Source: an uncultured archaeon
Lineage (GTDB): Archaea > Asgardarchaeota > Lokiarchaeia > Sigyniarchaeales > SOKP01
Direction: 5' to 3'
NCBI GenBank assembly: GCA_964447495.1
Contig: CAYUTF010000005.1
Coordinates: forward strand, 2,240-66,239
DNA: 64,000 nucleotides
Shown here: piece after piece, positions 13,566-54,255 of the stretch
Position numbering within the stretch: the first letter of the stretch is position 1
Layout of the letters: every line of letters starts with the position of its first letter
The notes under the pieces: generated by a model
What the model was told of the DNA's origin: nothing
Databases searched by the model: none
What the model saw: the letters and a program-made list of their open reading frames with translations, nothing else
Made by a program: the position numbers and the translations under genes

Positions 13566-14006
13566 TTATTTAGGATTAAATGGGCCAAGTTCTTTAATGT
13601 GATTTGTAAATTCAGTTATTATTTCTGCAAAACGTTTTCCTTCAGAAGCACTAACCCATTCTAATCGAATTCTCTTAGGATCTATTCCAAGTTGTTTAAT
13701 TATAATATTATGCAATCTGTTAAATCTTTCTTGTGCATACTCATTCCCAGAAATGTAATGACAATCGCCAATATGGCACCCACTTATTAAAACACCATCT
13801 GCCCCATCATTCAAAGCTTTCAATACAAAAGATGGGTCGACTCTACCCGAACACATTACTCGAATTATGCGAATATTAGGAGGATATTGAAATCGTGAAA
13901 CCCCGGCTAAATCTGCTCCTGCATAGGAACACCAATTACAGCAAAATACCAAAATTTGGGGCTCAAATTTAGTTGCTTTTGATTTTCCTTTTGTTTTTGA
14001 CATCAA
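13566..14006 (-). CDS. mvhD: MvhD-like (methyl-viologen-reducing hydrogenase delta subunit family) [2Fe-2S] protein, all-Cys form
   Basis: [15 protein letters not shown] ... [10 protein letters not shown] ... [11 protein letters not shown] are MvhD hallmarks. The likely true start is ATG 14003-14001, overlapping the hdrA TGA stop (TGATG) and preceded by GGAGGGTGA. Confidence 0.85.
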
Positions 14007-17000
14007 TCACCCTCCATAGGTGTTTTAACTAATAAATAAGAATCGATCATGGCTCCGATCTGGTTGAAATCGTAATGCTTTACAGAAATAGCGTTTATAG
14101 GGCAAGTTGCGGCACAAGTTCCGCACCCCTTGCATAGAGCAGAGTTAATATGAGATTTTGTGATTATAATAGTGATTTCTTCGAACTCCTTAGTTGCATC
14201 TATAAGATCTATTGCATTATATGCACATACATCTTTACATTTTCCACAGCCAATACACTTTTCAGAGTCAACTTCAGCTACAAGTCCAGAAGTCTTAATC
14301 TCACCCGCACTTAAGAATCGGCTTGCTCTCCCTGCAGCTCCGTTTGCTTGAGAAATAGAATCTTGAATATTTTTTGGCCATTGGGCACATCCGCATAAAA
14401 AGATGCCATCCGTGGCAAAATCAAGAGGTCTTAATTTCACATGAGCTTCAAGGAAGAATCCAGTTCTATCTAATGGAACTTTAAGCATTTTAGCTAATTC
14501 TTCAAGATTATCCGCAGGGATCATCGGGGTCGATAATATGATAAGGTCAGTTTCAAAATCAATGTCTTCTTGTAAATTAGTATCAAAGACATTTACTTTG
14601 AATTTTTCTTGTGATTTTCCTTGTGAAATTTTTGAGATTTCAGGGGGTTTATCTAAACTATAGCGCAGAAAAATCGCATCCTTTCTTCGTTCACGATAAT
14701 AATCTTCAAATTCCTTTTTGGCCATTTGAAGATCGCGATAAAGAATAAGAATTTCAAGATCGGGCTTTAACTCCTTTAGTATACCTATATTTTTAATGGA
14801 TACAGCACAACACACATTTGAACAATACGTAATACCTTCTTTTTGACGCGCATTTACACATAAGATAGTAGTAACCCTTTTGATTTTTTCAAGCCACGTG
14901 ATATCTCCGCTTTTCAAGCGTTCTTCTAATTCTAATTGGGTAATCACATTCTTATTTTTTCGATCATATTGAAATAATCCATCTGGTTTGTATTCATTTG
15001 CTCCTGTAGCGACAATAATGGTCCCAACTTTCAATTCTTTGCTCTTCTTCTTAGAATTTTTAATCGTAATGTCATAGTTGCCTATGTATCCTTTAATATT
15101 TTCAATTGTGGTTGAGAGATGAATCTCGATGTTTTTATGGTTTTTTACCTTATCTATAATCTCATTAAGATAATTTGATGCATCTTCTTGGATGGGATAT
15201 AAAATATTAAGATTGTTAAGATTTCCTCCCAAAATTTTCTCTTTTTCGATTAAATATATTTTAAATCCTTGATCTGCGATATTTAACGCAGCGGTCATTC
15301 CCGAGACACCCCCTCCTATAATAAAAGCACTCTGAATCATTTTTAAGGTCTCTTCTTTTTGCGGTCTAATGAGTTTCGCTTTAGAAACTGCCATTCGTAT
15401 AAGATCTTTTGCTTTCTCAGTTGCCGCCTCAAGTTCGTTCATATGCACCCAAGAACATTGATCGCGTATATTAACCATCTCGAACAAATACTTGTTCAAT
15501 CCCGCTTCCAGACAAGTTTCTTGAAAAAGGCTTTCATGGGTTCGTGGAGTACAAGAAGCTACAATAAATCGATTTAAATCCATTTCTTGGATAACCTCCT
15601 TGATTCGTTCTTGCGAATCACTAGAACAAGAATAAAGATTTGCTTCACAATGAACTACATTTGGTAGTTCCTTTATGTATTCTACAACTTCGGGGACATT
15701 AACATATTTCCCTATATTAATACCACAATGGCATACCAATACTCCGATTCGTGGCTCATCAGTAAGTTCTACTTTCTTTTCGGGTACTTTTATTTCTTTT
15801 TCCTTAGTCTCGGTAAACTTTTCCTCGTTTAAAAGGGAAGCAACTTTAGCAGCCACACCACTCGCGTCTGCAACTGTTTCCGGGATGTCCATTGGACCTT
15901 GACAGAATCCACAAAGGAAAACACCTTCTTTAGAGGATTCTGATTTTGAAAAATAAGATTTTTCTTTAAAAAAATTATAATCATCTAATTTAATGTTAAG
16001 AATATTAGCCAGCTCTTTGGTGCCATTCGAAGGAATAAGAGGAGAAGCCAGAACAACTAAATTTGCTCGAAAATCGGCAAATCCTCCATTTTTCAAGTCT
16101 TCATAATGGATGATCAAATCATTGGTCTCGGGATCTTCTTCTATCGTACTGATTTTGGTCTGAAAGTAAGTCACTCCATATTCGTCTTGAGCACGTTGGG
16201 TAAATTCATAGAAATTTTTACCATAAGCCCGAATATCGTGACGAAAAACAAAGCATTGAGTACTTTCAGAATGTTCTGAAGTAATAATCGCTTCTTTTGC
16301 CGTGTACATACAACAAACACTAGAACAATAAGGAACCCCTTCATGCAAATCTCGGGATCCAGCACATTGAATAAAAGCAATTTTTCCAGGCTCTTCGTGG
16401 TCACTTGGTCGAAGAACATGCCCTCCAAAGGGTCCAGAAGCGCATAAAATCCGCTCATATTCTAACGCACTCACAACATTTGGAAAATGGTATCCCCATC
16501 GAGCAGATAATTCTTCTGCTTTTACATCGAATCCTGTCGCAACCACAACTGCTCCAACTTGTAGTTTAATATCTTTTGGCTCTTGTTCATAATCTATAGC
16601 TTCTGCTTTGCAGACTTTCTCACATACTCCACACACGCCTTTAGTTATTTTTAAACATAATTCGGGATCAATTAAATAAACCGGAGGGACGGCTTGAGGA
16701 AATGGAATATAGATAGACTTTCTCTTGCCCAAATTCATATCAAAAAGATTTGGAACCTCGATTTTTGGACATTTTGACGCACAATCTCCGCATCCTTTAC
16801 ATTTTGTCTCATCAATATACCTAGGTTTCTTCGTGACAGTTACATTGAAGTCTCCTCCCTTTCCCTCTAATTTTTTAACTTCGCTATAGGTTAATAATTC
16901 AATATTGGGGTTTCGAAAGACCTCGACCATTTTTGGAGCGAGGATACATAAAGAGCAATCGTTTGTTGGAAAGGTTTTATCAAGCTGAGCCATCCTTCCC

Positions 17001-17113
17001 CCAATAGAAGGTGTTCTCTCTACAAGATATACTTTAAATCCTAATTCCGTTAAATCAAGAGATGTTTGAATTCCAGCTATCCCACCACCAATCACCAGAA
17101 CTGAACCTTGCAT
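14003..17113 (-). CDS. hdrA: HdrA-like flavoprotein with duplicated HdrA modules (1036 aa), all-Cys form
   Basis: Two FAD folds ([10 protein letters not shown] and [10 protein letters not shown]), the [11 protein letters not shown] motif, inserted and C-terminal 2x[4Fe-4S] ferredoxin motifs ([44 protein letters not shown]), and an internal HdrA N-domain (VCHCGINIG...[10 protein letters not shown]). Confidence 0.85.
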
Positions 17114-17117
17114 TCTT

Positions 17118-18359
17118 TTATGCCTCCTTCTTTTTTATTTTTACAAAATTCATAATAAATTCTGTAAAATCTAATATATCTAAATGAGCAATGTCCTCAT
17201 AATCGTTTTGAAGACATCTGAAATGCATAATGCACTTTGGACAGCTAGTCACCATCATCTGACCCGCTTCTTTTGCTTCTAATAATCGTTTATATCTTAA
17301 CGCTTTGGATCGTTCATTACATCCAATCCAACTCCCAATCCCACAACATAAGGAGTCTTCCTTATGATGGACCATTTCCTTGAATTGAGGCCCAGATTTA
17401 TTCAAATGGTAAAAGATTTCCCGTACTTTTTCCATCATATTATTCTCTTTAGGAAGAAATCTACTCATTCGGCAAGGATCGTGAAATGAATAATTAATAT
17501 CTTCCTTAATATCCTTACTAGGTTCAAATTCGATAATACCATCTTTCCACTTTTCATATATATATTCAATAATGTGTTTTACTTCGAATCTTTCTCCAAA
17601 ATCCTTAAAATATTTGGGATAATCTATTTTGAACGTACGATAGCCTTCAGAACAGGTAGTAATAATGGTTTTTGCTCCTGCTCGTTCGAAATTTCGTATA
17701 TTTTTCTCTGCAAGTCTAAGAAAGGCTTCGAGGTTGCCATGACCCCAATATAAATCATGACCACAGCAATATTCATCCTTAAGAACAACAATCGGTTCGG
17801 ATTCAGTCTTGTTTAATAATTTAACCGTATTGATCGCAATAGGGTCAAGATCATCAAATTCAAATTTAAAATATGGAAGACAACCTACATGATAGAGAAC
17901 TTCTCCTTGTTCTGCTATCTTGCATCCTTTTGGAATCCAGTCAAGATTTCTTTCTGGTTGCACTTGAGGTTTACTCATCAGTTCTGAAATCGATAAATAG
18001 ATGCCCTTATGAGCAGTATAGTTGTCAGGATCGAATTCATAAGCTTGAACCATTTTATGGCGCGCCACTCGAACGATATTCGCGAAGTTTATATCTTCGG
18101 GGCACTTCTGAAGGCAGCTATTACACATTAGACAATCCCATAGCACTCCTGATTGAAGGACTTGATCCTCAAACCCTTCTAAAATTCTCTGAATAATACG
18201 ACTTGGGGTGAATTTTTGTACTTTGCTTAGCTGGCAGACCCCAGAACATCGAGCACATTGATAGCATTGCTTCAGTAATGATCTCAATGAAAGAGTAGTT
18301 GAATCCTCTACCAATTTTTTATTCAATTTTAAGTCTGGTTCTTTTTTAACCTCAGTCAT
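17118..18359 (-). CDS. HdrD-like Fe-S/CCG-domain protein (fused HdrC-type ferredoxin plus HdrB-type CCG domains)
   Basis: CYQCARCSGVCQ and CLMCNSCLQKCP cluster motifs, followed by two CCG motifs (YCCGHDLY, LCCGIGSW) and DPCRMSRF / TSCPKC. Confidence 0.75.
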   Translation of the reverse strand: MTEVKKEPDLKLNKKLVEDSTTLSLRSLLKQCYQCARCSGVCQLSKVQKFTPSRIIQRILEGFEDQVLQSGVLWDCLMCNSCLQKCPEDINFANIVRVARHKMVQAYEFDPDNYTAHKGIYLSISELMSKPQVQPERNLDWIPKGCKIAEQGEVLYHVGCLPYFKFEFDDLDPIAINTVKLLNKTESEPIVVLKDEYCCGHDLYWGHGNLEAFLRLAEKNIRNFERAGAKTIITTCSEGYRTFKIDYPKYFKDFGERFEVKHIIEYIYEKWKDGIIEFEPSKDIKEDINYSFHDPCRMSRFLPKENNMMEKVREIFYHLNKSGPQFKEMVHHKEDSLCCGIGSWIGCNERSKALRYKRLLEAKEAGQMMVTSCPKCIMHFRCLQNDYEDIAHLDILDFTEFIMNFVKIKKKEA

Positions 18360-18364
18360 GATGA

Positions 18365-19495
18365 TTAACCTTCGATTGTTTTCATAAATTTTTCCCTTCT
18401 GTTATGTTTATTTTGAGAAAAAGCAGCAATGAGTTCCTTCATTTTTTGTTTCCGATCTTCATTAAGATCTAATTTTTTAATTATCCCGCTATTTAATGCC
18501 TTTTCAAATATCTCCTTTCCCTTTTTAGTTCTTGGAATAACAGTAGTATATTTCTCTATTGAGCCGAGCCCTCCAAAAGAAATATCTGAATAAATGTTTG
18601 TAAAGTCTGCGCATGCATTACAGGCGGGACGCATATAGGGTGCTAAATGATTAAAAGGAACATGAATTACCCTGTTCCCTACATTTGGATCCTTTAAGGT
18701 GAAAATTACGTCTTCTTTAATATTTATCTTAATAATATCTCTAAAATTTATGTTAAAATCCTTTTCAAACTTTTTAATTTGGGATTTTTCAAAGAAAAAA
18801 TTTTCATAACAAAATAGACCTAAACATACCTCTATATTTTGCGATGGTGTGACTCCTAAATCTTTCATACACGCAATTGTATAGAGTTGACACGGTGTTC
18901 CTACCACCGCCAGCTTTTTAAATTTATAATGATTCAACTCAGGAATGGAATGAGTATAAGTGCTAAACTTTTGAATTTCATCTAATTGGGGAGTAATATC
19001 TAACTTTGCTCCTGAAGCTTTTAGTAGATCAGATTTACAATCTGCAAAAGTCGCTTCCCTTGAAAATGGAGCTTCGGTTTTCGATACTACCGCACCCTCA
19101 ACCATCTTATTTTTGATTAAAAAGTAAAGGATTGAGTTCACCACACCTCCATCAGTGCCGTACTCTAGGAATTCCTTATCAGTGGCTTGACAAGAATAAA
19201 TATCATCATAGTTTCCTAAAGGCATGGAAGAAAAATCAGTAAATCCATAAGTTTTATTCAGCTGGTCATCTAATATATGAGTTTGAGGACAAATATAATA
19301 ACAGATACCACACTCTAAGCACTTATCTTTATTAATATACACTGGTGGCTTATATTCGTCTTTAAAACCGATAACATCAAATTCTGCTGAACTACAAAAG
19401 CTCACACAGCCTCCACATTCTTGACATATTCCCTTTTCGTGTACCTCTTTTATGAGATCTTCAAAAGTTTTTGTACTCATGATAGATTTATTCAC
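18365..19495 (-). CDS. FrhB/FdhB-family flavin/Fe-S protein (F420-hydrogenase beta-like), paralog 2
   Basis: N-terminal CQECGGCVSFC / CLECGICYYICP, then GTDGGVVNSILYFL, VGTPCQLYT and CNACADFTNIYSDISFGGLG family motifs. It overlaps the upstream frhB-like gene by 8 nt. Confidence 0.75.
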   Translation of the reverse strand: MNKSIMSTKTFEDLIKEVHEKGICQECGGCVSFCSSAEFDVIGFKDEYKPPVYINKDKCLECGICYYICPQTHILDDQLNKTYGFTDFSSMPLGNYDDIYSCQATDKEFLEYGTDGGVVNSILYFLIKNKMVEGAVVSKTEAPFSREATFADCKSDLLKASGAKLDITPQLDEIQKFSTYTHSIPELNHYKFKKLAVVGTPCQLYTIACMKDLGVTPSQNIEVCLGLFCYENFFFEKSQIKKFEKDFNINFRDIIKINIKEDVIFTLKDPNVGNRVIHVPFNHLAPYMRPACNACADFTNIYSDISFGGLGSIEKYTTVIPRTKKGKEIFEKALNSGIIKKLDLNEDRKQKMKELIAAFSQNKHNRREKFMKTIEG

Positions 19496-20996
19496 TTAGA
19501 TTTCTTATTTTATCATAGGGACTCTTACAATTATTTCGTTTAGTACCCCCAATTTTTTCCACTAAAAATAACCCAGGCTTGACTTCTTTGAGGCTTTTAG
19601 ATTCAATATCTCCATTTTTCACTAACTCATTATAGATAGTGTCCGCCTCTTTGGTCCGCGTAATTACTGAAGACCACCCATCTTGAGACCCAATGGAGCC
19701 TACTGAAAAGTCTGCATAATCGGATGTTAAATCCTCACAATAATGGCAACTGTCCCGAGCATATTTCTTTACCTCTTTGAGTGGAACATCTAATTGCTCT
19801 CCAGATTTTAATCGAATGATAAACTTTCCACCTCCAATATTCATCTTAGTCAATTCATTAATATCCTTGTCGAATTGTTCCTTAGCTAGTTGAATGATTC
19901 CCTCATATGGAAATGATTCCATACAGAAGAGCCCTATCTTGTATTTAATATTTTTAAAGAACGGAAGTCCGCTCGGAAAAAGAGTACCTTTCTCTAAAGC
20001 CTTCATCATACAAGGAACCCCTACAAAAGCAATTTTTTCATACTTTTTTGCCTGATCGATGATCGACAAGGACGGAGAATTCGCATATTTCGTGCCCGCC
20101 GTCTTATAGAGTTCCTTCACATTCTCAATAATTACCGGTTCTGGTTTCCATAGTTGATCTGAATGTTGTACTGCAATTACTGCATCAACAAGGTTTTTTT
20201 TCAATAAATATTCGGCGATGGTAGTAACGATCCCTCCATCTTGACGTACTTTTATGATCTCGTCATTCTTTGTGCTTCCCGAATAGGTGCCAATATACCC
20301 TCCAATTTTATCTGACCAATTCAAATTTTTATCTAACTTCTTAATCGCTTCATTCATTTGGTCTATAGAAAAGGAACGAGGGCAGACTGTAAAGCATAAC
20401 CCACACTTCATGCATACATTATCGTCGATTTTAAGCGTATTCGCATCAACCTCGATCGCATTTACAGGACATATGGCAGCACACCAACCGCATTGACAGC
20501 ACGCACCAGCATCATATACGATGGAAACGGGTTCAAAATAGTGTTCAATAAAAGCGGGTTCAAGTTCTTTAACTTGATATCGATAAAAATACTCTTTTAC
20601 CTCGACTTCCTTCTCTTCTCCTTTAATTTTTTTAGTGACCTTTTTGATTTTTACTTCAACAAGTTCCTTTACATATCCCTGCTCTTTTAAGTATATCACA
20701 TCTCGGATAACATTTTCTGGGGGAAATTCCTTGATAACATCCATAATCTCTTCTAAAAATAAGGGTTCTTTGCCTCTTAAATACTCTAAGACGATTTTAC
20801 GCTCCGTTTCAGCATCAACCATAGCATCCAAAATTGCATAGTATTCTTGTTCCCCATATTTTCCTGCTTCAAGAATTTCGTCCTTAGCTTCATAGAAAGC
20901 GCGGATCTGAAAGTTCTTTGACGCTTCATAGGTGGCATCCATCAATTCTTTGGGAGACACCCCTTCAAATAACTTACTATTTACTATTTGAACCAT
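19488..20996 (-). CDS. FrhB/FdhB-family protein with an N-terminal extension of about 150 aa, paralog 1
   Basis: CCQCGWCAAICPVNAI / CMKCGLCFTVCP, VRQDGGIVTTIAEYLL, VGVPCMMKAL, and CHYCEDLTSDYADFSVGSIG. The N-terminal extension has no recognised motif. Confidence 0.75.
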   Translation of the reverse strand: MVQIVNSKLFEGVSPKELMDATYEASKNFQIRAFYEAKDEILEAGKYGEQEYYAILDAMVDAETERKIVLEYLRGKEPLFLEEIMDVIKEFPPENVIRDVIYLKEQGYVKELVEVKIKKVTKKIKGEEKEVEVKEYFYRYQVKELEPAFIEHYFEPVSIVYDAGACCQCGWCAAICPVNAIEVDANTLKIDDNVCMKCGLCFTVCPRSFSIDQMNEAIKKLDKNLNWSDKIGGYIGTYSGSTKNDEIIKVRQDGGIVTTIAEYLLKKNLVDAVIAVQHSDQLWKPEPVIIENVKELYKTAGTKYANSPSLSIIDQAKKYEKIAFVGVPCMMKALEKGTLFPSGLPFFKNIKYKIGLFCMESFPYEGIIQLAKEQFDKDINELTKMNIGGGKFIIRLKSGEQLDVPLKEVKKYARDSCHYCEDLTSDYADFSVGSIGSQDGWSSVITRTKEADTIYNELVKNGDIESKSLKEVKPGLFLVEKIGGTKRNNCKSPYDKIRNLSE

Positions 20997-21130
20997 TGAG
21001 TCTTCATTTTAAATTTTTTTCTTAAAAAATCTAATTTTTACTACTATTTTCCAACTAGCTCCCTCCTGAGCAAGGAGTGTTATCTTATAACCAAAATTTT
21101 CTTATAAGAATCATTCAATGGGAGCTGATA
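20997..21130 (-). promoter_or_regulatory. Candidate SECIS-bearing 3' region of the hdrA-vhuD selenoprotein pair
   Basis: Minus-strand RNA ...CAGCUCCCAUUGAAUGAUUCUUAUAAGAAAAUUUUGGUUAUAAGAUAACACUCCUUGCUCAGGAGGGAGCUAGUUGG... Complementary pairs read directly: AGCUCCC/GGGAGCU, UCUUAUAA/UUAUAAGA (A-rich 11-nt loop, AUGA one nt upstream), and CUCCU/AGGAG. Not folded computationally. Confidence 0.3.
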
Positions 21131-21557
21131 CTAATTCTTTGTTACCTTCTGTCAAATTAATCGGATTGGGACCAATTCTACTAATCTTTTCATACGCATC
21201 TTCAACACTTTTTACTAATTTTTCTGCTTCTGCACTACTACACCAATACATATTCGCTCGTTGATTACCAAAACCTCGTTTTTCAAGTATCCTGTTAGCA
21301 AGATCTATATGTTTTTGAGCTGTGAAATTACCGGCTTTAAATTGACACTCATTAGGTCTTCATCCTACAACCATTACTCCATCTGCACCTGTTTTAATCG
21401 CAAATAAAATATGCTTTACATCAACTCTCCCTGTGCATTTTACTTTGATTATTTTCACATCAGGAGTATATTTAAACCGCGAGACTCCTGCTAAATCTGC
21501 GGCACCATAACCTCATTTTAAGCATGCAAACATGATAATCTTATATTTATGTTCCAT
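21111..21557 (-). CDS. vhuD: VhuD/MvhD-like selenoprotein with two in-frame TGA (Sec) codons
   Basis: Absent from the ORF track. ATG 21557-21555, preceded by GGAGG (21570-21566), overlaps the hdrA stop (AATGGAACATAA). The translation is [46 protein letters not shown]...GADGVMVVG-U-RPNECQF... TGAs at 21515-21513 and 21362-21360 align to Cys in [15 protein letters not shown] and [12 protein letters not shown] of the paralog at 13566..14006. Confidence 0.75.
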
Positions 21558-23499
21558 TTTCTGCGCCTCCTTGTATAATTGCTTCAATTTCAGCATATAA
21601 TTGATAATCCCTATAATACTTTATATCAATTGCTTGAGTTGGACAACAAGATGCACATATACCACATCCGTCGCAATTAATGTCATCAACAACCGCTTTA
21701 TTATCTTTAATAGTTATGGCTCCTTTAGGACATTCCTTTTCACATCGCCCACATGAAATACATAAATCAGGGTTAATTTCAGCAATTATCAATTCAAGAT
21801 CAATTTCACCTGAGGATGTTAGCTCAACTACTTTACTAGCAGCAGCTCTCGCTTGAGATACTGAATAAGCAATATCTTTTGGTCCCTGTGCAAATCCTGC
21901 GATAAATATCCCTTTTGTTTTCGTTTCTTGCGGCATTAATCCAAAATGCGATTCTGTCAAAAAACCATTTTTATCGACATCTAAATTTAGTACTTTGGCA
22001 ATTTGCTGAGTTCCGCGAGAAGGGAGTGCTGCAGTTGATAAGACCACTAAATCTGCATCAATTTTAATAATTTCATCAGTTAGAGAAGAATAAACCCTTA
22101 TTTCAACATTTTTGGTATCAGGGTTTTCTGTAATGCCACCAACTTTTCCACGAATCATCCGAATATCTGAATCTTTTGCCCGTTGGTAATATTCTTCGAA
22201 TCCTTTTTCATTGGTTCTAATGTCAATATAACAGATCGTTATATTAGCGTCGAGTATTTCCTCTTTAAGTAATTTTGCATTTTTGAGAGCCAGCATACAA
22301 CATACTCCGCTACAATAAGTCCTTTCGGTGTCACGGCTGCCAACACATTGGATAAATACAATCTCTTTTGGTTTTTTTAAATCAGATATTCGAGCGATGT
22401 GACCTTCTAATGGACCGTTCGGTGCTAACATTCTCTCAAGTTGGGCTTGATTTATAACATTATCATACTCACCATATCCATACTCACCCATAGGCTCATA
22501 TATGTCCCACCCTGTAGCAATTATTATAGACCCTACTTTAAAATTTACCTCTTCTGGCACTTGGCTAAAATCTATGGCATTTAGCTCACAAACATCAACA
22601 CAACTGAAGCATTCAACACAAGTATCTCTATGAATATCATATAAAAAAGGTACCGCTTGACCAAATGCTATATCAATTGTTTTCCGAACCCCAAGATGTT
22701 CGTCAAAATAATTGGTTATGAACACTGGGCAGACCTCCGAACATGCTCCACACCCATTACAATCATTATTAATGAATCGGGGCATCTTTTCTACCGTGAT
22801 TTCATAATTTCCGACATATCCCTTAACGTTTCTAACAAAACTATAGCTCAATAGTTCTATATTTTCATGACGGTTAACTTCTAACATCTTAGGACCACAT
22901 ATTCAGATGCTACAGTCATCTGTTGGAAATGTTCTGTCCAATTGAGCCATTCTTCCACCAATTGTAGTATTTTTATCAACTAAATATACCTTAATTCCCT
23001 GATTCGCTAAGTCTAAGGCAGCATTCATCCCTGCAATACCTCCACCAACAATTAAACATGCTTTTTCTATTGGAACTGTTCTTATAGGTATTATCTCTAA
23101 AGTTTTAGCTCTTTCTATACCGCTTTTGACTAAAATTTTTGCTTTTTCTGTTGCTTCCTCTTTATCAGCGGTACACCAACTGCAATGTTCTCTTACATTA
23201 ACCATCTGGAAGTAATAGGGGCTTAAATCCGTTTTTGAAATTGAAGCCCGATATATGGGTTCATGTGTCCTTGGAGTTCACGCAGACGCAACTACTCTCG
23301 TTAATTTCTTTTCTTGAATATCTTGGATTATTTCATTTTGTCCACTTTCAGTGCAAAGGAATGCATTAGTTTTGGCAACCACTACGTCATCAAAAGTTTT
23401 AGCAAATTCAACAAGTTCATTACAATCAACTTTACTTCGAATATTTATGCCTCATTGACACGCGTAAAAACCAATCCGATGCTGGGTAGTTTTTTCCAT
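21547..23499 (-). CDS. hdrA: Heterodisulfide reductase subunit A (HdrA) selenoprotein with three in-frame TGA (Sec) codons
   Basis: Track ORFs 21547..22887 and 22903..23205 plus untracked 23206..23499 form one 651-codon frame (ATG 23499-23497, TAA 21549-21547). TGAs fall at 23454-23452 (codon 16), 23280-23278 (codon 74) and 22905-22903 (codon 199). They align to Cys of the 14003..17113 paralog: YACQ-U-GINI vs LVCH-C-GINI; VASA-U-TPRTHE vs [10 protein letters not shown]; DDCSI-U-ICGPKM vs [12 protein letters not shown]. Confidence 0.85.
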
Positions 23500-33779: not shown

Positions 33780-34316
33780 ATGAGTAAAGGAGAATATCAA
33801 TTCAAAATTTCAGTAGTAGGAGATGGAGCGGTAGGCAAAACTTCTCTTATTAAAATGTTTACAAAAGGAATATTTGAAAAAGATTATATCAAAACTATTG
33901 GCGCGCAATTTTCACGATTTGAAAAAGTAATAGAGAATGATAGCGTAAATCTAGTCTTCTGGGATATCGCTGGTCAAGAAGATTTTGATTTTCTTCAGCC
34001 ACTATTTTATAAAGAGAGTAAAGCTTCTATTGTAGTCTATAGTCTTGAAGATAATGATTTAGGTAGAGAGAGTTTTAATCATATAAAGAACTGGGTTCAA
34101 AATCTAAGAAAATATTGCGGAGAAATCCCCCTGATTTTATTTGCTAATAAGGTAGATTTAATAGAGGAAAATGAATTAAATTTACTGGATATAAAGAACA
34201 TAGCTGAAAAACATAATTTTTTTAGCTTTTCCTTGACTTCTGCGAAAACAGGCCAGGGAGTTAATGAAGCATTTAATCTAATCATCCATGAATTATATAA
34301 TAAGTATAGAGAGTAA
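33780..34316 (+). CDS. Rab/Ras-like small GTPase
   Basis: G1 GDGAVGKTS, switch I YIKTIGAQF, G3 WDIAGQE, G4 NKVDL, G5 TSAKTG. There is no C-terminal prenylation Cys. Confidence 0.9.
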   Translation: MSKGEYQFKISVVGDGAVGKTSLIKMFTKGIFEKDYIKTIGAQFSRFEKVIENDSVNLVFWDIAGQEDFDFLQPLFYKESKASIVVYSLEDNDLGRESFNHIKNWVQNLRKYCGEIPLILFANKVDLIEENELNLLDIKNIAEKHNFFSFSLTSAKTGQGVNEAFNLIIHELYNKYRE

Positions 34317-34547: not shown

Positions 34548-36143
34548 ATGACGAATCCTAACTTCCCTCCCGAAGAGATATTCGAAAACAGAGCTGAATT
34601 TGGTTTATACAATTCAATAAGGATGCTAACCAAGATTATTGAGTCATCAGATGATAGTAATAAAAGAAAAAGTGCGATAAAGTATTTAGGATTAGTAAGT
34701 AAAGAAGCACCAGCATATAAAGAAGAGTGTTTTGATAGTATAGAAAACATTTTAATCTCGGAAGAGAATATTGAAATTAAATGCGAAGCGGCTAAGGCTT
34801 TAGGAAAATTAAAACTGAAAAAGGCTTTAAAACCTTTACTATGGATTTTTGATAAATCCGTAGATAACAACGATTTAAGGCTTTCAATATTAAAAGCGAT
34901 CTATAAAATTACATTTGAAGATGCTGAAATTGAACTCTTCATAAAAGAATTAGATTCTTCTCATATTGAAATTAAGGAATATGTGAAAAATCAGTTACTT
35001 ATCCTCAATCCTGAAGTATTGGTAAAAAAATTAATTAATTCTTTACCTAATAAAAATCTTTCAAATAAAAATAAAGCGGAGATAATAAAGTTAATTGCTT
35101 TTGAAATTTCGAGTATAAATTCATCCTTTGAGGGTTCAAGTTTCATAGAAGTAAAGTATCCCGAAATTCTCTCAGAATTAATAAACCAAAAAGAAGTATT
35201 GCTGACAGAAATAACTCAAATATTGAAGACAGATGATAAAAGTCTACTTGAATCATCAATTTCGATTCTTAGTATACTTAAGGATAATATTAAAGAAGAT
35301 ATTATTAAGTTACTCCTTACAGATAATTTCATCATAAAAAAAAATGCAATTACAATTTGTGGTAAACTTCAATTAATTGAGGCTGCAGACTTAATAGTTC
35401 AAAACTTGGATAATCTCTATAATGAGGTAAGCATAGCTTCAATCGAGGCATTAGGAGAGATTGGTGATCTTACAACTGTACCTGATTTACTTGATATTCT
35501 AAATGTTGAAGATATCAGTTTTGAATATTCTGATATTGATATGAAATTCCAAATTATGGATGCTGTAAAAAAAATTTATTTAAAGCATGATCAAATATCC
35601 TATAAGGACTTATATCAATCTTTAGAAAAGGAAAATGACACTATCAGGGCGAGCATCGCATTTATTTTAGGAGAGATAGGAAGAGAAGAATTTATACAAC
35701 CATTAATACGACTATTGAAGATTAAAAACGTAGATGTTAGAAAAAATATAATAATAGCTCTAGGAAAAATAGGACATATCGATGCTTTAGATAATTTAAT
35801 TGATATTATTAATGATGATAGTGCATATTGGCTTATTAAAAAAGTAACTACTGATGCTATATATAATATCTTTCAACAAAATTCGTATAAGATTGATAAA
35901 AATACTAAACAATTGAAATCGGAATTAAATAAAAAAATAGCTATTATTATTGAGCATTTAAGAGAATCAGAGAAGGAAAATTACAAAGTTAAATTAGGTT
36001 TAATAAAATTCTTAGAAACTTTCGGAGATACAAAAGCTTTAGATGCTTTATTGAGAAGAGTTAATGATTTTCATAGAGTAGTTAGAATTTATGCTTCTAA
36101 TGCGATTAAAAAAATCGAGGAAAGATTGGAATTAGGCAATTAA
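34548..36143 (+). CDS. HEAT-repeat (PBS-lyase HEAT-like) protein
   Basis: Recurring units such as EAAKALGKLKLKKALKPLL, SIEALGEIGDLTTVPDLLDIL, IAFILGEIGREEFIQPLIRLL, and IIALGKIGHIDALDNLI. Confidence 0.7.
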   Translation: MTNPNFPPEEIFENRAEFGLYNSIRMLTKIIESSDDSNKRKSAIKYLGLVSKEAPAYKEECFDSIENILISEENIEIKCEAAKALGKLKLKKALKPLLWIFDKSVDNNDLRLSILKAIYKITFEDAEIELFIKELDSSHIEIKEYVKNQLLILNPEVLVKKLINSLPNKNLSNKNKAEIIKLIAFEISSINSSFEGSSFIEVKYPEILSELINQKEVLLTEITQILKTDDKSLLESSISILSILKDNIKEDIIKLLLTDNFIIKKNAITICGKLQLIEAADLIVQNLDNLYNEVSIASIEALGEIGDLTTVPDLLDILNVEDISFEYSDIDMKFQIMDAVKKIYLKHDQISYKDLYQSLEKENDTIRASIAFILGEIGREEFIQPLIRLLKIKNVDVRKNIIIALGKIGHIDALDNLIDIINDDSAYWLIKKVTTDAIYNIFQQNSYKIDKNTKQLKSELNKKIAIIIEHLRESEKENYKVKLGLIKFLETFGDTKALDALLRRVNDFHRVVRIYASNAIKKIEERLELGN

Positions 36144-36310: not shown

Positions 36311-37807
36311 ATGACTGAAAACCAACCAAAAGAAAAGCAAGAATCCTCTCAATATGAATATTCATTTAATTATATTCAGAAGAAGTTAGAAGGGAAGAAA
36401 GATAGTCTCGGTATGCTCATGAAGGAGATCATCCGAACGGGGATATGTACTGAATGTGGCACATGTGCTGCGGTCTGTCCTGTCTTAGAATGGGATCATG
36501 AGCTAGGAGAACCTAAACTGGTAGGAAAGTGTACGGGATGTGGAATATGTTATAATCAATGTCCACGAACTATAACAGATCCGATACAACTCATGGGAGA
36601 CTTCAAAACAGGTTATGTATCGAACACAAATATTCCCGAAGTCATTGGAGGTCAAGATGGGGGCACTGTGACTTCATTGTTATGCTATTTATTCGATGAA
36701 CATTTAATAGATGCAGCAATCGTTACAATGAAAGATCCTGAAAATCCATGGAACCCAGTTGCACAGATCATAACAACAAAAGAAGATGCTATTAAATCAT
36801 CAGGTTCGATTTATTCACATTCCCAAACTGTTGAGGCTCTTATGGATGCGATTAGACAGGATTACAGGTCGATTGCTTTTGTAGGAACTCCCTGTAATAT
36901 TGATGCCGTTGATAAAATGATGAGTTCTCCTGCAGGAATGCTAAAATACTTCATGAGAGCACATGTATTAAAGTTAGGGCTTTTTTGCATGGATTCATTT
37001 GCACCTGAAGCATTATATTCATTTTTTGATAAAGAAGGAGTTGATCTTAAGCAAGTAAAAAAAATGGATATTAATAAAGGTAAATTTCATTTATACTACG
37101 ATCCGGATAAAGAACCTGTTAAATCATATACCATTAAACAATTAGATAAATTTAAGTCATCGAGTTGTAATTTTTGCACCGATTTAACCGCTGAAAATTC
37201 GGATATCTCTGTTGGATCAGTAGGAAGCGGGCCAAATAAGAATACAGTATTTGCTAGAACCGGGATTGGGGCTGAAATTATTGAGGATGCCGCGAAAAAA
37301 GGATACCTAAAAATTGAACCTTTTAATGCTATAAACCTTAATGCTGTATTATTTTTAGCCAAGCTTAAAAAAGTTTCTCAATATAATATACAGAAACGTA
37401 AAGTATTCATCGTTAAAGATACTATTGAAGAAGAACCACGTATTAAAACAAAACCAGAGGCTGAGAAGTCGAAAACAACGCCAGAATTAGGAGCAAGGAA
37501 ATTTTTACGAGTTACAAAGGATATTAACGAGGAAGAGAATGTTTTAAATATATCTATAACGAATTCTGTTGGCTATGTTTTAGAGAAATTAAAAATAAGA
37601 ATAGTAACCGTAGAAGATTTATTTGAAAGTCGACCATGGATCACGACAATAAAAGAATTATTTCCATACGAAACCATTGAAATTGGATACCCTTTAGAAG
37701 AAAAAGAAGGGAAGATTATTTATGGGAATGTTTTAGTTGAAGCCTCCACAGATGATTTTGGAAAAATATTCTCAAAAACTTTTAAATTAGTACCTAAAGA
37801 AGTATAA
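36311..37807 (+). CDS. FrhB/FdhB-family protein, paralog 3, with a unique C-terminal extension of about 140 aa
   Basis: CTECGTCAAVCP / CTGCGICYNQCP, GGQDGGTVTSLLCYLF, VGTPCNIDAV, CNFCTDLTAENSDISVGSVG. A K/E-rich linker follows, then an unrecognised beta-rich tail. Confidence 0.7.
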   Translation: MTENQPKEKQESSQYEYSFNYIQKKLEGKKDSLGMLMKEIIRTGICTECGTCAAVCPVLEWDHELGEPKLVGKCTGCGICYNQCPRTITDPIQLMGDFKTGYVSNTNIPEVIGGQDGGTVTSLLCYLFDEHLIDAAIVTMKDPENPWNPVAQIITTKEDAIKSSGSIYSHSQTVEALMDAIRQDYRSIAFVGTPCNIDAVDKMMSSPAGMLKYFMRAHVLKLGLFCMDSFAPEALYSFFDKEGVDLKQVKKMDINKGKFHLYYDPDKEPVKSYTIKQLDKFKSSSCNFCTDLTAENSDISVGSVGSGPNKNTVFARTGIGAEIIEDAAKKGYLKIEPFNAINLNAVLFLAKLKKVSQYNIQKRKVFIVKDTIEEEPRIKTKPEAEKSKTTPELGARKFLRVTKDINEEENVLNISITNSVGYVLEKLKIRIVTVEDLFESRPWITTIKELFPYETIEIGYPLEEKEGKIIYGNVLVEASTDDFGKIFSKTFKLVPKEV

Positions 37808-37918: not shown

Positions 37919-38839
37919 GTGCTCCCGTACTTGAAAATTGCATTGATAGGGCTTTCAGGTTGTGGTAAAACAAGCCTCTACTCTGTTGCTTTTGCGGAAA
38001 AAAGTCCAGAAGACACCAAAAAGTTTAGTCCAACAATTTTATATGAAACTCGAAGGCATCCCTTTTTAGGATTACAAGTTGGCATATTTGACTTTGGAGG
38101 GCAAGAACAATATAGAAAAGAGTATATGGAAAAGCCAGAAGTGTTTAGAGGTACTGATATCTTAATTCCTATTGTGGATTTACATGATCCTAAATCTTTT
38201 AAGCAAGCAAAGGAGTATTTTGAAGGGTTATTAAATATTTATCGAAAAAATAATGAAAAGCCGAAAATCTTTCTATTCTTGCATAAATATGACGTTGAGA
38301 ATTATCAAAAAGAACTTCTCGATACAAACGTTAAAATGGCTAAGGAAGCTTTATTAGATTTGTTCAAGGATTATGAGTTTGATTACAAGTTAACGAGTAT
38401 TTATTTACAAGATGAATTAGCTAAAATTTTCAGGGATATTTTAATATCTTCCTATTCAGAGCTAAAAACTCATGTTGAGAAAGCAGAGAAGCAGTTAGAA
38501 GAAATTAAAGCAAAAATTATTATTTCTGATGTATCGGGAAATGTCATAGTACATAATGTTCAAGGCGTGAGTAGTGGATTAACATTAAGGGGAGATTTAA
38601 GAGACTTTATCAATGCTTGCAATACAGTCCGAGAAAATCTTTTTATGTCAGATTCTGCTGAGTTTAAAGGGAGAAATGATGATGGAAAAGAGATTGAACT
38701 CTACATCTTCAAGTATATCATTTCTGTTCTTGTAATGAAATCTGGGGAGATTGAACGTGAATCTCAAGATAAACTTAATATGTTATTGAATGACATGAAA
38801 TTATTTGCTGATTTAATAATTTCAGCCCACACTGAGTAG
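37919..38839 (+). CDS. Rag/Gtr1-like GTPase with a C-terminal roadblock domain
   Basis: G1 GLSGCGKTS, G3 DFGGQEQY, and an atypical G4 HKYD (compare HKMD of Rag GTPases). TSIYLQDELAKIFRDIL resembles the Rag TSIWDETLYKAW segment. The C-terminal roughly 120 aa show an alpha-beta roadblock pattern. Confidence 0.7.
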   Translation: MLPYLKIALIGLSGCGKTSLYSVAFAEKSPEDTKKFSPTILYETRRHPFLGLQVGIFDFGGQEQYRKEYMEKPEVFRGTDILIPIVDLHDPKSFKQAKEYFEGLLNIYRKNNEKPKIFLFLHKYDVENYQKELLDTNVKMAKEALLDLFKDYEFDYKLTSIYLQDELAKIFRDILISSYSELKTHVEKAEKQLEEIKAKIIISDVSGNVIVHNVQGVSSGLTLRGDLRDFINACNTVRENLFMSDSAEFKGRNDDGKEIELYIFKYIISVLVMKSGEIERESQDKLNMLLNDMKLFADLIISAHTE

Positions 38840-51653: not shown

Positions 51654-52361
51654 TTAAAGAGAATAGCATACATTTTCTGTACTATTATTCTCTATTTTTA
51701 ATATTTCCTTCTTTAGAAATAAACTTCTAAAAAATTCTACATTATTTATCATTGGAGGTAAGGGGGGCAAATTTACTCCTCCAGATTTTAAATAGTATAA
51801 CCTTGGAATCAACCCAATGAGATCTCTATATGAAGTCACCATTTTCATGATTTTATGCCAAGACTGCCCCGCTTTAAAATTAACATCATTAGTTAATTCA
51901 AAATACACAATATCTAAATTTAGAAATAAGAAGACTTCTTTTTTTACATCATAAATCTTCTGAAGACGAGTTATAATATTCTTTTTTAATGAATCATATT
52001 CTAATCCAATTTGATGGTTTATCACTTCAAGGATTTTTGCTAAAACCAAAGCTGCTGTATCGTTATGAATAACCCAATTTATAGGCACTAATGAGAGTTT
52101 GGGGAATAATCTTGAAATAACCTCAATACTTATACTCCTCACCAGAGAGCTCTCATCAGATAGCATGCAATTTTCAAGAATTTTGAAAATATATGCTCCT
52201 TTTAATTCTAATTTACCTATAATCTCAATGCATTTGGTTCGTATATGGATATTATCACTTTTTTCTAATAATGAAATTAGAATATCAGTAGCAGCTTTTT
52301 GATTTAAATTGTCTTTTAATACTTCATAATACACTTTTTCGGGGGTATATTTCTCTTCCAT
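51654..52361 (-). CDS. Hypothetical HEAT-like repeat protein
   Basis: The N-terminal half has HEAT-like units (IRTKCIEIIGKLELKGAYIFKILENCMLSDESSLVRSISIEVISRLF). It lies 133 nt downstream of the MglA-like GTPase on the same strand. Confidence 0.4.
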   Translation of the reverse strand: MEEKYTPEKVYYEVLKDNLNQKAATDILISLLEKSDNIHIRTKCIEIIGKLELKGAYIFKILENCMLSDESSLVRSISIEVISRLFPKLSLVPINWVIHNDTAALVLAKILEVINHQIGLEYDSLKKNIITRLQKIYDVKKEVFLFLNLDIVYFELTNDVNFKAGQSWHKIMKMVTSYRDLIGLIPRLYYLKSGGVNLPPLPPMINNVEFFRSLFLKKEILKIENNSTENVCYSL

Positions 52362-52494
52362 ATTTAATGATCAAATACTATAAACGTAATTAAATTGTAT
52401 ATTGTTTTGTTTATTGATGATAAAGAATCTAAGATAGCCATTTAATCTTATCCATAAAAGAATAGAAAAAAAATGAAAGAAATATGTAAAAAAG

Positions 52495-53154
52495 TCAATG
52501 AATTGCTGAAACTAATTGGTTCTTGTATAGTTGCTTAAATACTAAACTCAAAATCTCTTCGAATGAATCTAAGATTCCCTCTCCGTTAAGAGCAATGGTG
52601 TTTTTGATATTAATATTCTTGTATTTATAATAATTAATTTGATCCAGGAATACTTTTGGATTGTATTTACCTTGTACGTCCTGTTTGTTAAATGCGATAA
52701 TTTTTGGGATATCTTCAAATTTGTCTTCATAAAAAGAGCATAATTCATTCCAAGAGGTTAAAGTTCGGTTGAAGGCCTTTTTTTGAGAATCTGCGACAAA
52801 GATTATCCCATCAATTGCTCTTAGGGTAATTGGGCGGGTCACAATATAGAAGTCCTGACCTGTGGTGCTGTAAATATGAATTTTTAATAACCATAGTTCA
52901 TTTTGAAAAGAAATACTACCATAATCAAAAAATAAAGTACGACGTACTGAACTTTCTATTGATTCTAGTTTATTTTCCATTCCAAAATGCTTAAAAAGGG
53001 ATTTAATAGAAGTTGTTTTCCCTGATAAAGCAGGACCGTAATAGACTATTTTAATCTGTATATATTTTTCTAACCAATCAATAATCATAATCAAATAATA
53101 TCTATTTGTTATAATTCTAAAAATAGGTTTATAAAAGACTATTTTTTCAGTCAA
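52495..53154 (-). CDS. MglA-like small GTPase
   Basis: KIVYYGPALSGKTTSIKSL (MglA: KIVYYGPGLCGKTT), RTLFFDY, YSTTGQDFY, DGIIFVADSQ, FNKQDV. The true start is probably an internal Met (MIIDWLEKY...). Confidence 0.8.
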   Translation of the reverse strand: MTEKIVFYKPIFRIITNRYYLIMIIDWLEKYIQIKIVYYGPALSGKTTSIKSLFKHFGMENKLESIESSVRRTLFFDYGSISFQNELWLLKIHIYSTTGQDFYIVTRPITLRAIDGIIFVADSQKKAFNRTLTSWNELCSFYEDKFEDIPKIIAFNKQDVQGKYNPKVFLDQINYYKYKNINIKNTIALNGEGILDSFEEILSLVFKQLYKNQLVSAIH

Positions 53155-53808: not shown

Positions 53809-54027
53809 TCTGATAATTGTTATTTTTGTTTGAAAATGTATGCATTAAACAATTTTAACTTATTAAGTGAAATATTTCATTCGTTTTTAATTTATTAGTC
53901 TTTAAGGTTTATATGTTCCAATAAATAATGGCTTCCAAAAAGTATTTCATAAAATATTAAGAAACGCTTTAAATAGGAGATTTTATTTATATTAATAAGA
54001 ATAAAATACTTAAAAAGAGGATTTCAA

Positions 54028-54255
54028 ATGGATAAAGAAAAAGTAAAACAAGTTATTGAAAAAATTCGACCACAATTGCAAATGGATGGCGGAGACATTG
54101 AGCTCATAAGCGTTGAGGATGATGGGACTGTACGGGTAAGACTAATGGGCCATTGTGTTGGTTGTATGCATGCACAGCAGACATTAACATATGGTGTTGA
54201 AAAAGCTTTAAAACAGTTTGTTCCTGAAATAAAGCAAGTAGTAAATGTAGCCTAA
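54028..54255 (+). CDS. NifU-like (Nfu C-terminal domain) Fe-S cluster carrier
   Basis: IRPQLQMDGGDIELISVEDDGTVRVRLMGHCVGCMHAQQTL, with the CxxC motif. Confidence 0.85.
   Translation: MDKEKVKQVIEKIRPQLQMDGGDIELISVEDDGTVRVRLMGHCVGCMHAQQTLTYGVEKALKQFVPEIKQVVNVA

Follow-up and report, generated by a model that had tools for sequence, protein, structure and literature searches.

A probable hdrA–vhuD selenoprotein unit with five in-frame TGA codons and one shared SECIS element in a Lokiarchaeia-type archaeon

The 64-kb stretch of DNA analysed here (the window; contig CAYUTF010000005.1, from an uncultured archaeon) carries an hdrA gene whose reading frame is interrupted by three TGA codons. Such a locus raises the question of whether the gene has decayed, is split into smaller genes, or encodes a single protein in which the TGAs are read as selenocysteine (Sec). 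An earlier note on the same DNA proposed the last of these. We conclude that hdrA very probably belongs to a selenoprotein unit of two genes, both intact and expressed, in a Lokiarchaeia-type Asgard archaeon, and that its TGAs stand for Sec. Conservation of the TGAs among orthologues, purifying selection, a Sec insertion sequence (a SECIS element), and homology to solved enzymes support the proposal for hdrA itself. The note had missed the extent of the unit, which also takes in vhuD, with two more Sec codons, and a SECIS after vhuD. All coordinates below are positions in the window, and all parts of the hdrA–vhuD–SECIS unit lie on the minus strand.

Results

The hdrA coding sequence (21547..23499, minus strand) is a single frame of 651 codons with TAA as its stop, and its predicted product of 650 residues would include three Sec. 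Translation of this interval confirmed that the frame, 1,953 nt long, is broken by TGAs only, as the earlier note had claimed: there are exactly three internal stops, all TGA, at codons 16 (23452..23454), 74 (23278..23280) and 199 (22903..22905), within the motifs YAC-Q-U-GINI, VASA-U-TPRTHE and DCSI-U, respectively (U denotes Sec). Codons 16 and 74 fall within residues 1–135, which agrees with the claim that two of the TGAs lie in the N-terminal Fe–S domain. The note had also expected gene callers to fragment hdrA, and they do: the open reading frame (ORF) list for the window gives a 446-aa fragment (21547–22887) and a 100-aa fragment (22903–23205) and leaves the first 98 codons uncalled, and gene calls on identical public contigs likewise divide the gene into 100 + 446 aa. 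Of the 294 ways in which a single step could create a stop codon in hdrA, 33 turn Cys into TGA, and three random nonsense hits would all be of this kind with p ~0.0014. This calculation, made on a single hdrA sequence, is suggestive; the orthologue data are decisive.

Scanning one genome per species, we collected 80 orthologous loci with HdrA proteins 75–90% identical in amino acid sequence to that of the window; counts out of 81 are these loci plus the window sequence. Codons 74 and 199 are TGA in 81/81 sequences. Codon 16 is TGA in 80/81, the other being ACT in locus L075, and in 80/80 of the sequences that possess that region. Codon 49 is TGA in 55/81, making it a Sec position in the majority of orthologues, and TGT or TGC in 26/81, the window (TGC, 23353..23355) among them. 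This site toggles between Sec and Cys; TGA is fixed at codons 16, 74 and 199. Throughout the pair and its orthologues, in-frame TGAs stand on Cys columns and alternate solely with TGT or TGC.

Individual orthologues showed further variation. In L075, hdrA is without its first ~45 residues, including the codon-16 Sec, and the DNA upstream of 3001 is stop-rich in all frames; the variant is either truncated or decayed at its 5′ end. Extra TGAs on Cys occur in single orthologues at codon 300 (L040 and L049), codon 297 (L050) and codon 612 (L057); these Cys belong to ferredoxin-type [4Fe–4S] motifs (CxxCxxC), in which the TGAs would put Sec at classical cluster-ligand positions. Loci L059 and L062, both from metagenome-assembled genomes (MAGs) of one study, have a 13-residue insertion after HdrA residue 101 with one further in-frame TGA (IRVMMUFHSCSQY and IRVLIUNDSCSQN, respectively).

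Between the window and 13 orthologues, synonymous sites are saturated (proportion of synonymous differences, pS, ~0.75), and the ratio of non-synonymous to synonymous differences (pN/pS) is 0.29 for codons 1–15, 0.20 for codons 17–73, 0.14 for codons 75–198 and 0.14 for codons 200–650. On these ratios, all four segments of hdrA delimited by the TGAs are under purifying selection. With low pN/pS in every segment and pS at saturation, each piece has therefore been kept as protein and the TGAs have been kept as TGAs. Non-TGA stops or frameshifts in close relatives, which the earlier note had named as grounds for abandoning the selenoprotein reading, were not found among the 80 orthologous loci.

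The partner gene, vhuD (also mvhD; FlpD family; 21111..21557, minus strand), starts 11 nt inside the end of hdrA and stops at UGA. Its predicted product, 148 aa including two Sec, matched Pfam FlpD (E = 3e-42) and the VhuD chain 9sfi_K in the PDB (E = 7e-36). The in-frame TGAs are codon 15 (21513..21515; motif FAC-LK-U-GYG) and codon 66 (21360..21362; motif VVG-U-RPNEC), equivalent to Cys16 and Cys67 of M. marburgensis MvhD. Codon 15 is TGA in 79/79 loci and lies opposite X in 9sfi_K and Cys16 in 9sw2_D, and codon 66 is TGA in 77/77 alignable loci and lies opposite the second X in 9sfi_K; they thus occupy the two sites at which the solved VhuD of Methanococcus maripaludis has Sec. The stop of hdrA is TAA in the window. 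Among the 79 sequences in which a vhuD match adjoins hdrA, a crude tally of first stops gave TAA in 59, TAG in 15 and TGA in 5.

When aligned to known HdrA, the predicted protein matched solved enzymes along its full length, with its TGAs opposite Cys or Sec. A phmmer search against PDB sequences matched 9sfi_A (E = 5e-201, over residues 7–643) and 5odc_A (E = 2.5e-195), the matches covering residues 6–643, and the architecture is that of a full-length HdrA: an N-terminal Fe–S domain, a flavin adenine dinucleotide (FAD)/thioredoxin-reductase domain with an inserted ferredoxin domain, plus another ferredoxin domain at the C terminus. U199, the canonical HdrA Sec site, lies opposite X (Sec) 197 of 9sfi_A and Cys197 of 5odc_A, so the note was right to equate the third TGA with the Sec site of methanococcal HdrA, that is, Sec197 of M. 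maripaludis. The counterparts of U16, C49 and U74 in 5ODC are Cys13, Cys46 and Cys71. Only five Cys positions of the N-terminal domain are conserved universally (14, 16, 26, 49 and 74), and the window protein has them in common with the two solved sequences compared (Cys11, Cys13, Cys23, Cys46 and Cys71). In the four-Sec orthologues three of these five positions are Sec.

The solved enzymes indicate what may surround these sites. In M. maripaludis HdrA, Sec197 takes part in a Cys–Sec feature between the N-terminal [4Fe–4S] cluster A3 and FAD (PMC13518236), and in a crystal structure, as summarised in PMC9012536, Cys197 from one HdrA serves as a ligand to the partner's N-terminal cluster. In VhuD, the alignment places U15 at the relay residue Cys16 of MvhD, and U66 (Cys67 in MvhD) directly precedes the His68/Asp71 pair, which is Arg67/Glu70 in the window; in MvhD, His68 and Asp71 contact an unidentified ligand. 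Aligned to these structures, U16, U74 and U199 of HdrA and U15 and U66 of VhuD therefore all map to the junction of the mobile arm and FAD. Comparison of the HdrA N-terminal domain with VhuD in hhalign, made to see if U16/U74 and U15/U66 are equivalent by descent and using shallow alignments, gave no homology (probability 2%).

A SECIS element of the type described in Lokiarchaeota (lokiSECIS) lies at the end of vhuD and is shared by the pair. We aligned 76 distinct orthologous elements (A1), and the covariance model made from them matched the whole modelled region (21049..21136, minus strand) with 80.5 bits (E = 3e-18), and this was the sole strong match in the 64 kb, searched also with filters off. 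The core AUGA (21111..21114) contains the UGA that stops vhuD, and its nucleotides A23-U24-G25-A26 are invariant in the 76 sequences. It is followed by the upper stem and apical loop (21082..21110), with nine positions per arm, the first pair being U·U, and an 11-nt loop, GAAAAUUUUGG, at 21091–21101; the 3′ half of the core is AA (21080..21081), which makes the element an AUGA_AA rather than an AUGA_GA variant. In order, its letters are AUGA / UUCUUAUAA / GAAAAUUUUGG / UUAUAAGAU / AA. The apical loop is A-rich with G as its last base, and its AAA is invariant in the 76 elements. The lower stem has its 5′ arm (21120..21126) within the last vhuD codons and its 3′ arm at 21057..21063, with 7 bp between them in the minimum free energy (MFE) fold. 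An extra hairpin, H3 (UCCU-UGCUC-AGGA; 21064..21076), interrupts the internal loop on its 3′ strand. Upper stem, lower stem and extra hairpin make the SECIS a three-way junction, with which the MFE fold of the window sequence agrees.

Wherever a locus includes the stretch beyond vhuD, that stretch is conserved, and covariation supports each helix. In the upper stem, 94.7% of alignment cells are paired and 7/9 pairs have changed on both sides, which 0/500 shuffles equalled; RNAalifold also found this stem, with compensatory changes in 6/8 predicted pairs. Hairpin H3 (columns 64–66/73–75 of A1) is 92.5% paired, with double changes in 2/3 pairs and a loop of consensus YGCRA in which G and C are nearly invariant. 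The lower stem (columns 12–17/78–83) is 73.8% paired, with double changes in 5/6 pairs. Taken as a specified three-helix structure, the element has 87.4% paired cells, compared with 43–54% in slid registers, and 14/18 pairs changed on both sides; for each measure the observed value lay beyond all 500 shuffles.

Searches for other elements that could serve the TGAs were negative. For a bacterial-type SECIS, a conserved stem-loop less than about 60 nt downstream of the UGA, RNAalifold on 30 codon-aligned orthologues predicted no folding behind codons 16, 74 and 199 (0.0 kcal/mol), and for a euryarchaeal GAA_A-type SECIS there were 0 matches in 20980–21160 (minus strand) under the pattern constraints of PMC11227280. 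Rfam at its gathering thresholds gave no match for the lokiSECIS type in the window. A sliding RNAalifold scan of hdrA turned up a sole conserved small hairpin, at ~21826–21842 (minus strand; coding sequence nt ~1658–1674; −4.8 kcal/mol); the stretch around it is Ala-rich, and the hairpin possibly reflects no more than codon composition. A candidate second SECIS at 35534–35619 (plus strand; 19.5 bits, E = 0.037) falls in a HEAT-repeat gene and has AUGG in place of AUGA, and we judged it a chance match. With no second SECIS, no local hairpins after the TGAs and no GAA_A element, a single element must therefore serve five UGAs, which lie about 248, 401, 1,791, 2,166 and 2,340 nt upstream of the AUGA, across two overlapping cistrons.

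The pathway that these features suggest would begin with translation of hdrA and vhuD from one mRNA, as in the published Lokiarchaeota model. Recoding of the five upstream UGAs, at distances of ~0.25–2.3 kb, would be the joint work of the 3′ SECIS, Sec-tRNA(Sec) and the archaeal elongation factor specific for Sec. The UGA within the SECIS core would be too near to be recoded and would therefore end vhuD, so that one triplet at 21111–21114 would serve both as terminator and as kink-turn nucleotides whereas the five UGAs upstream are recoded; the vhuD stop doubles as the UGA of the AUGA core not only in the window but in 55/79 sequences with an adjacent vhuD match. Read-through of hdrA would be avoided because the gene ends in UAA. 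By analogy with solved homologues, the products would be a flavin-containing, electron-bifurcating HdrA and its [2Fe–2S] partner MvhD/VhuD, with Sec in place of conserved Cys on or beside both the mobile arm and the Cys pair adjoining the bifurcating FAD. At these positions Sec would be likely to tune electron transfer among the VhuD cluster, FAD and the N-terminal shuttle cluster.

Several observations weigh against this reading. The single-sequence thermodynamic z-score of the SECIS is ordinary (−0.95), and the window element is non-consensus at two points, the U·U first stem pair and the 3′ AA in place of GA; both features recur in orthologues, the AA variant in about a dozen, and 8/9 upper-stem positions of the window element are canonical pairs. 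None of tRNA-Sec, EFSec/SelB, PSTK, SepSecS and SelD was found in the 64-kb window with ARAGORN, Rfam and Pfam; ARAGORN reported no tRNA at all in the window, and the Pfam scans covered all window ORFs of at least 100 aa, save for a handful of short ones that overlap longer ORFs. That the genome can decode Sec is thus an assumption based on relatives and published work; the main text of PMC11227280 reports the Sec-decoding trait in 85.9% of Lokiarchaeia/Helarchaeales MAGs. The literature consulted gave no protein-level evidence, such as Se labelling or peptides, for any Asgard selenoprotein.

The lack of visible Sec machinery within the window would also suit a genome-wide, context-free reassignment or read-through of UGA, in which a suppressor tRNA inserts Trp, Gly or Cys rather than Sec, and reassignment of UGA is known in some uncultured lineages. 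However, TGA ends 8/33 of the Pfam-supported genes in the window and occurs in frame in 0/33. The restriction of the in-frame TGAs to Cys columns, where they swap only with TGT/TGC, the experimental modelling of homologous positions as Sec in M. maripaludis structures and the presence of a SECIS also argue against reassignment, which we regard as very unlikely.

A naturally split HdrA, with translation truly ending at each TGA and several small polypeptides as products, would account for the 100- and 446-aa ORFs, both of which have ATG starts downstream of two of the TGAs. Such a split is at odds with the conservation of codons 17–73 as protein (pN/pS 0.20) and with conserved codons 75–98, which precede the first ATG of the 100-aa ORF. 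Moreover, the breaks would fall inside single structural domains of the solved enzyme, and the alternation of Cys and TGA at codon 49 makes no sense for a split gene. The chance that hdrA is split is accordingly very slim.

If hdrA were a pseudogene, its TGAs would be nonsense mutations in a dead gene made redundant by a Cys-type paralogue. In favour of this, a single step turns a Cys codon into TGA, the same strand carries a Cys-type Hdr module 4–10 kb away, and gene callers report hdrA as fragments. Decay would not yield the pattern observed, as the earlier note had argued: the identical three TGAs are kept in 80 species-level orthologues with saturated synonymous sites, neither further stops nor frameshifts occur, and on both sides of every TGA pN/pS stays at 0.14–0.29. 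The conserved SECIS after the hdrA–vhuD pair speaks for a working locus, and identities of 75–90% exclude the orthologues being copies of one contaminating sequence. We find a pseudogene scarcely credible.

Sequencing or assembly error, for which nothing specific speaks beyond the generic worry over metagenome-derived sequence, has a negligible probability: the same DNA occurs in the Logan assembly SRR8556706 (100% identical over 7,209 nt covering the whole of hdrA) and the JGI assembly 3300031551 (1 mismatch in 6,111 nt), contrary to the note's reservation that the TGAs could be assembly artefacts, and the same codons recur in eighty independent MAGs.

Turning to the neighbourhood of the selenoprotein unit, two FrhB/FdhB-like genes (18365..20996, minus strand; Pfam FrhB_FdhB_N/C) lie directly downstream of the pair, and the order hdrA–vhuD–frhB–frhB is conserved, the two frhB genes being kept in 77/81 and 72/81 sequences. 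This synteny suggests that they are a conserved electron-input partner for the HdrA–VhuD module. A third FrhB/FdhB-like gene is present at 36311–37807 (plus strand).

Further along the minus strand is a second Hdr-like module (13566..18359) in which all the equivalent positions are Cys. It comprises an HdrB/C-like CCG-domain gene (17118–18359), a fused double HdrA of 1,036 aa (14003–17113) and a Cys-type MvhD (13566–14006). In a tblastn comparison with the Cys-substituted hdrA translation, the fused protein had Cys opposite each hdrA TGA, as the note had stated; as a correction to the note, this paralogue consists of two HdrA-like halves. Its first half has the motif DCSLC and is without the N-terminal domain, and its second half has both N-domain motifs and is without DCSxC. 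The fused HdrA described as heterodimer-like in anaerobic methanotrophic archaea (ANME), as reported in PMC9012536, has complementary halves alike; the window paralogue has them in the opposite order.

A six-frame scan for TGA-bridged frames, that is, other selenoprotein genes in the window, left only the hdrA and vhuD frames as credible. Candidates at 51654–52511 and 53898–54251 were rejected, their extensions being low-complexity or non-coding-looking.

The host assignment rests on several features. All of the 80 best loci belong to MAGs whose titles give Promethearchaeota, a different Asgard phylum or ‘uncultured archaeon’. The window, with a GC content of 31.6%, encodes small GTPases like Ras (33780–34316, plus strand), RagA/Gtr1 (37919–38839, plus strand) and Arf (52495–53154, minus strand), which are eukaryotic-signature proteins and consistent with an Asgard origin. 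Both the Asgard affiliation of the best loci and these GTPases point to an Asgard, Lokiarchaeia-type host for the HdrA–VhuD pair.

Discussion

The locus is an instance of an already described phenomenon and not a new kind, and its orthologue group is well represented in public MAGs. Pairs of multi-Sec HdrA and VhuD genes with one lokiSECIS were reported from Lokiarchaeota by Mariotti et al. in 2016 (PMC4989117). According to the main text of that paper, the Sec positions of HdrA are all on conserved Cys and never lack the canonical site at about residue 200, a two-Sec vhuD is always next to hdrA with a very short spacer or an overlap, the hdrA stop is always UAA or UAG, and the single lokiSECIS of the pair follows vhuD, its AUGA at times doubling as the stop codon. 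A 2024 survey, again on the evidence of its main text (PMC11227280), counted 1,439 selenoprotein sequences in Asgard archaea, HdrA and FrhD/VhuD being the largest families among them, and reported the AUGA_AA core variant for Lokiarchaeia hdrA/frhD genes. The window resembles those pairs in having hdrA and vhuD in tandem on the same strand, a multi-UGA HdrA with a Sec at about residue 200 and a two-UGA VhuD, and its SECIS resembles lokiSECIS in its AUGA, nine-position stem, 11-nt A-rich loop with final G, and AA, and in its presence only after vhuD. It shows no difference in kind: it is a three-Sec variant, with Cys49, an AUGA_AA core and a U·U first pair.

Comparison with Methanococcales shows both likeness and difference. 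The M. maripaludis Hdr–Vhu–Fwd complex (PDB 9SFI; PMC13518236) contains full-length homologues that share the Sec at 197/199 and both VhuD Sec, and adjacency of hdrA and vhuD is common to both. Methanogen HdrA, however, has one Sec, whereas window HdrA has two more, in the N-terminal Fe–S domain; the methanococcal SECIS is of the GAA_A type, which was not found in the 3′ region of the window; and the host is an Asgard archaeon, with no methanogenesis genes seen in the window. The Cys-type HdrA–MvhD enzymes of Methanothermococcus thermolithotrophicus and Methanothermobacter (5ODC, 9SW2; PMC13580544) share the fold and cofactor motifs; there, U16, U74 and U199 are Cys13, Cys71 and Cys197, and recoding is not needed. 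The SECIS itself recalls that of eukaryotes, including selenoprotein P, in its kink-turn AUGA…GA/AA core, A-rich apical loop and 3′ position, and in its apparent service to multiple UGAs at kilobase distance. By contrast with the eukaryotic element, the stem is shorter, the mRNA would serve two cistrons and there is an extra hairpin in the internal loop. The main text of PMC4989117 mentions that no SBP2 is known in Lokiarchaeota.

What we add is modest: a well-supported three-Sec example, an 80-orthologue picture in which Sec is fixed at HdrA 16, 74 and 199 and at VhuD 15 and 66 and toggles at HdrA 49, and the placement of these sites on Hdr structures of 2017–2026, around the mobile-arm/FAD junction. 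We did not find a mapping of Sec sites onto recent Hdr structures in the main texts of PMC4989117 and PMC11227280, nor the extra hairpin with lower stem that makes the element a three-way junction, and this feature of the SECIS is perhaps undescribed. For annotation, the split gene calls mean that reconstructions of energy metabolism in Asgard archaea from HdrA and MvhD under-count or mis-call the enzyme. More generally, one eukaryote-like SECIS apparently serves several distant UGAs across two cistrons, a phenomenon that is important but established; lokiSECIS has previously been used in the argument that the eukaryotic SECIS descended from an archaeal VhuD element.

The positions of the Sec codons also prompt a speculation that we hold to be rather unlikely, namely that nearly the whole thiol set around the mobile arm of the bifurcating flavin has been converted to selenium, with the extra SECIS hairpin perhaps enabling the recoding of five UGAs. 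U16 and U74, joined in most orthologues by U49, lie in the domain that holds the shuttle cluster. If the speculation is true, at least one cluster ligand in the four-Sec orthologues would be a selenolate, giving a naturally Sec-ligated [4Fe–4S] cluster or a multi-selenol relay, and the extra hairpin may allow a single SECIS to act on the UGAs of both overlapping cistrons, five in all and as far off as 2.3 kb.

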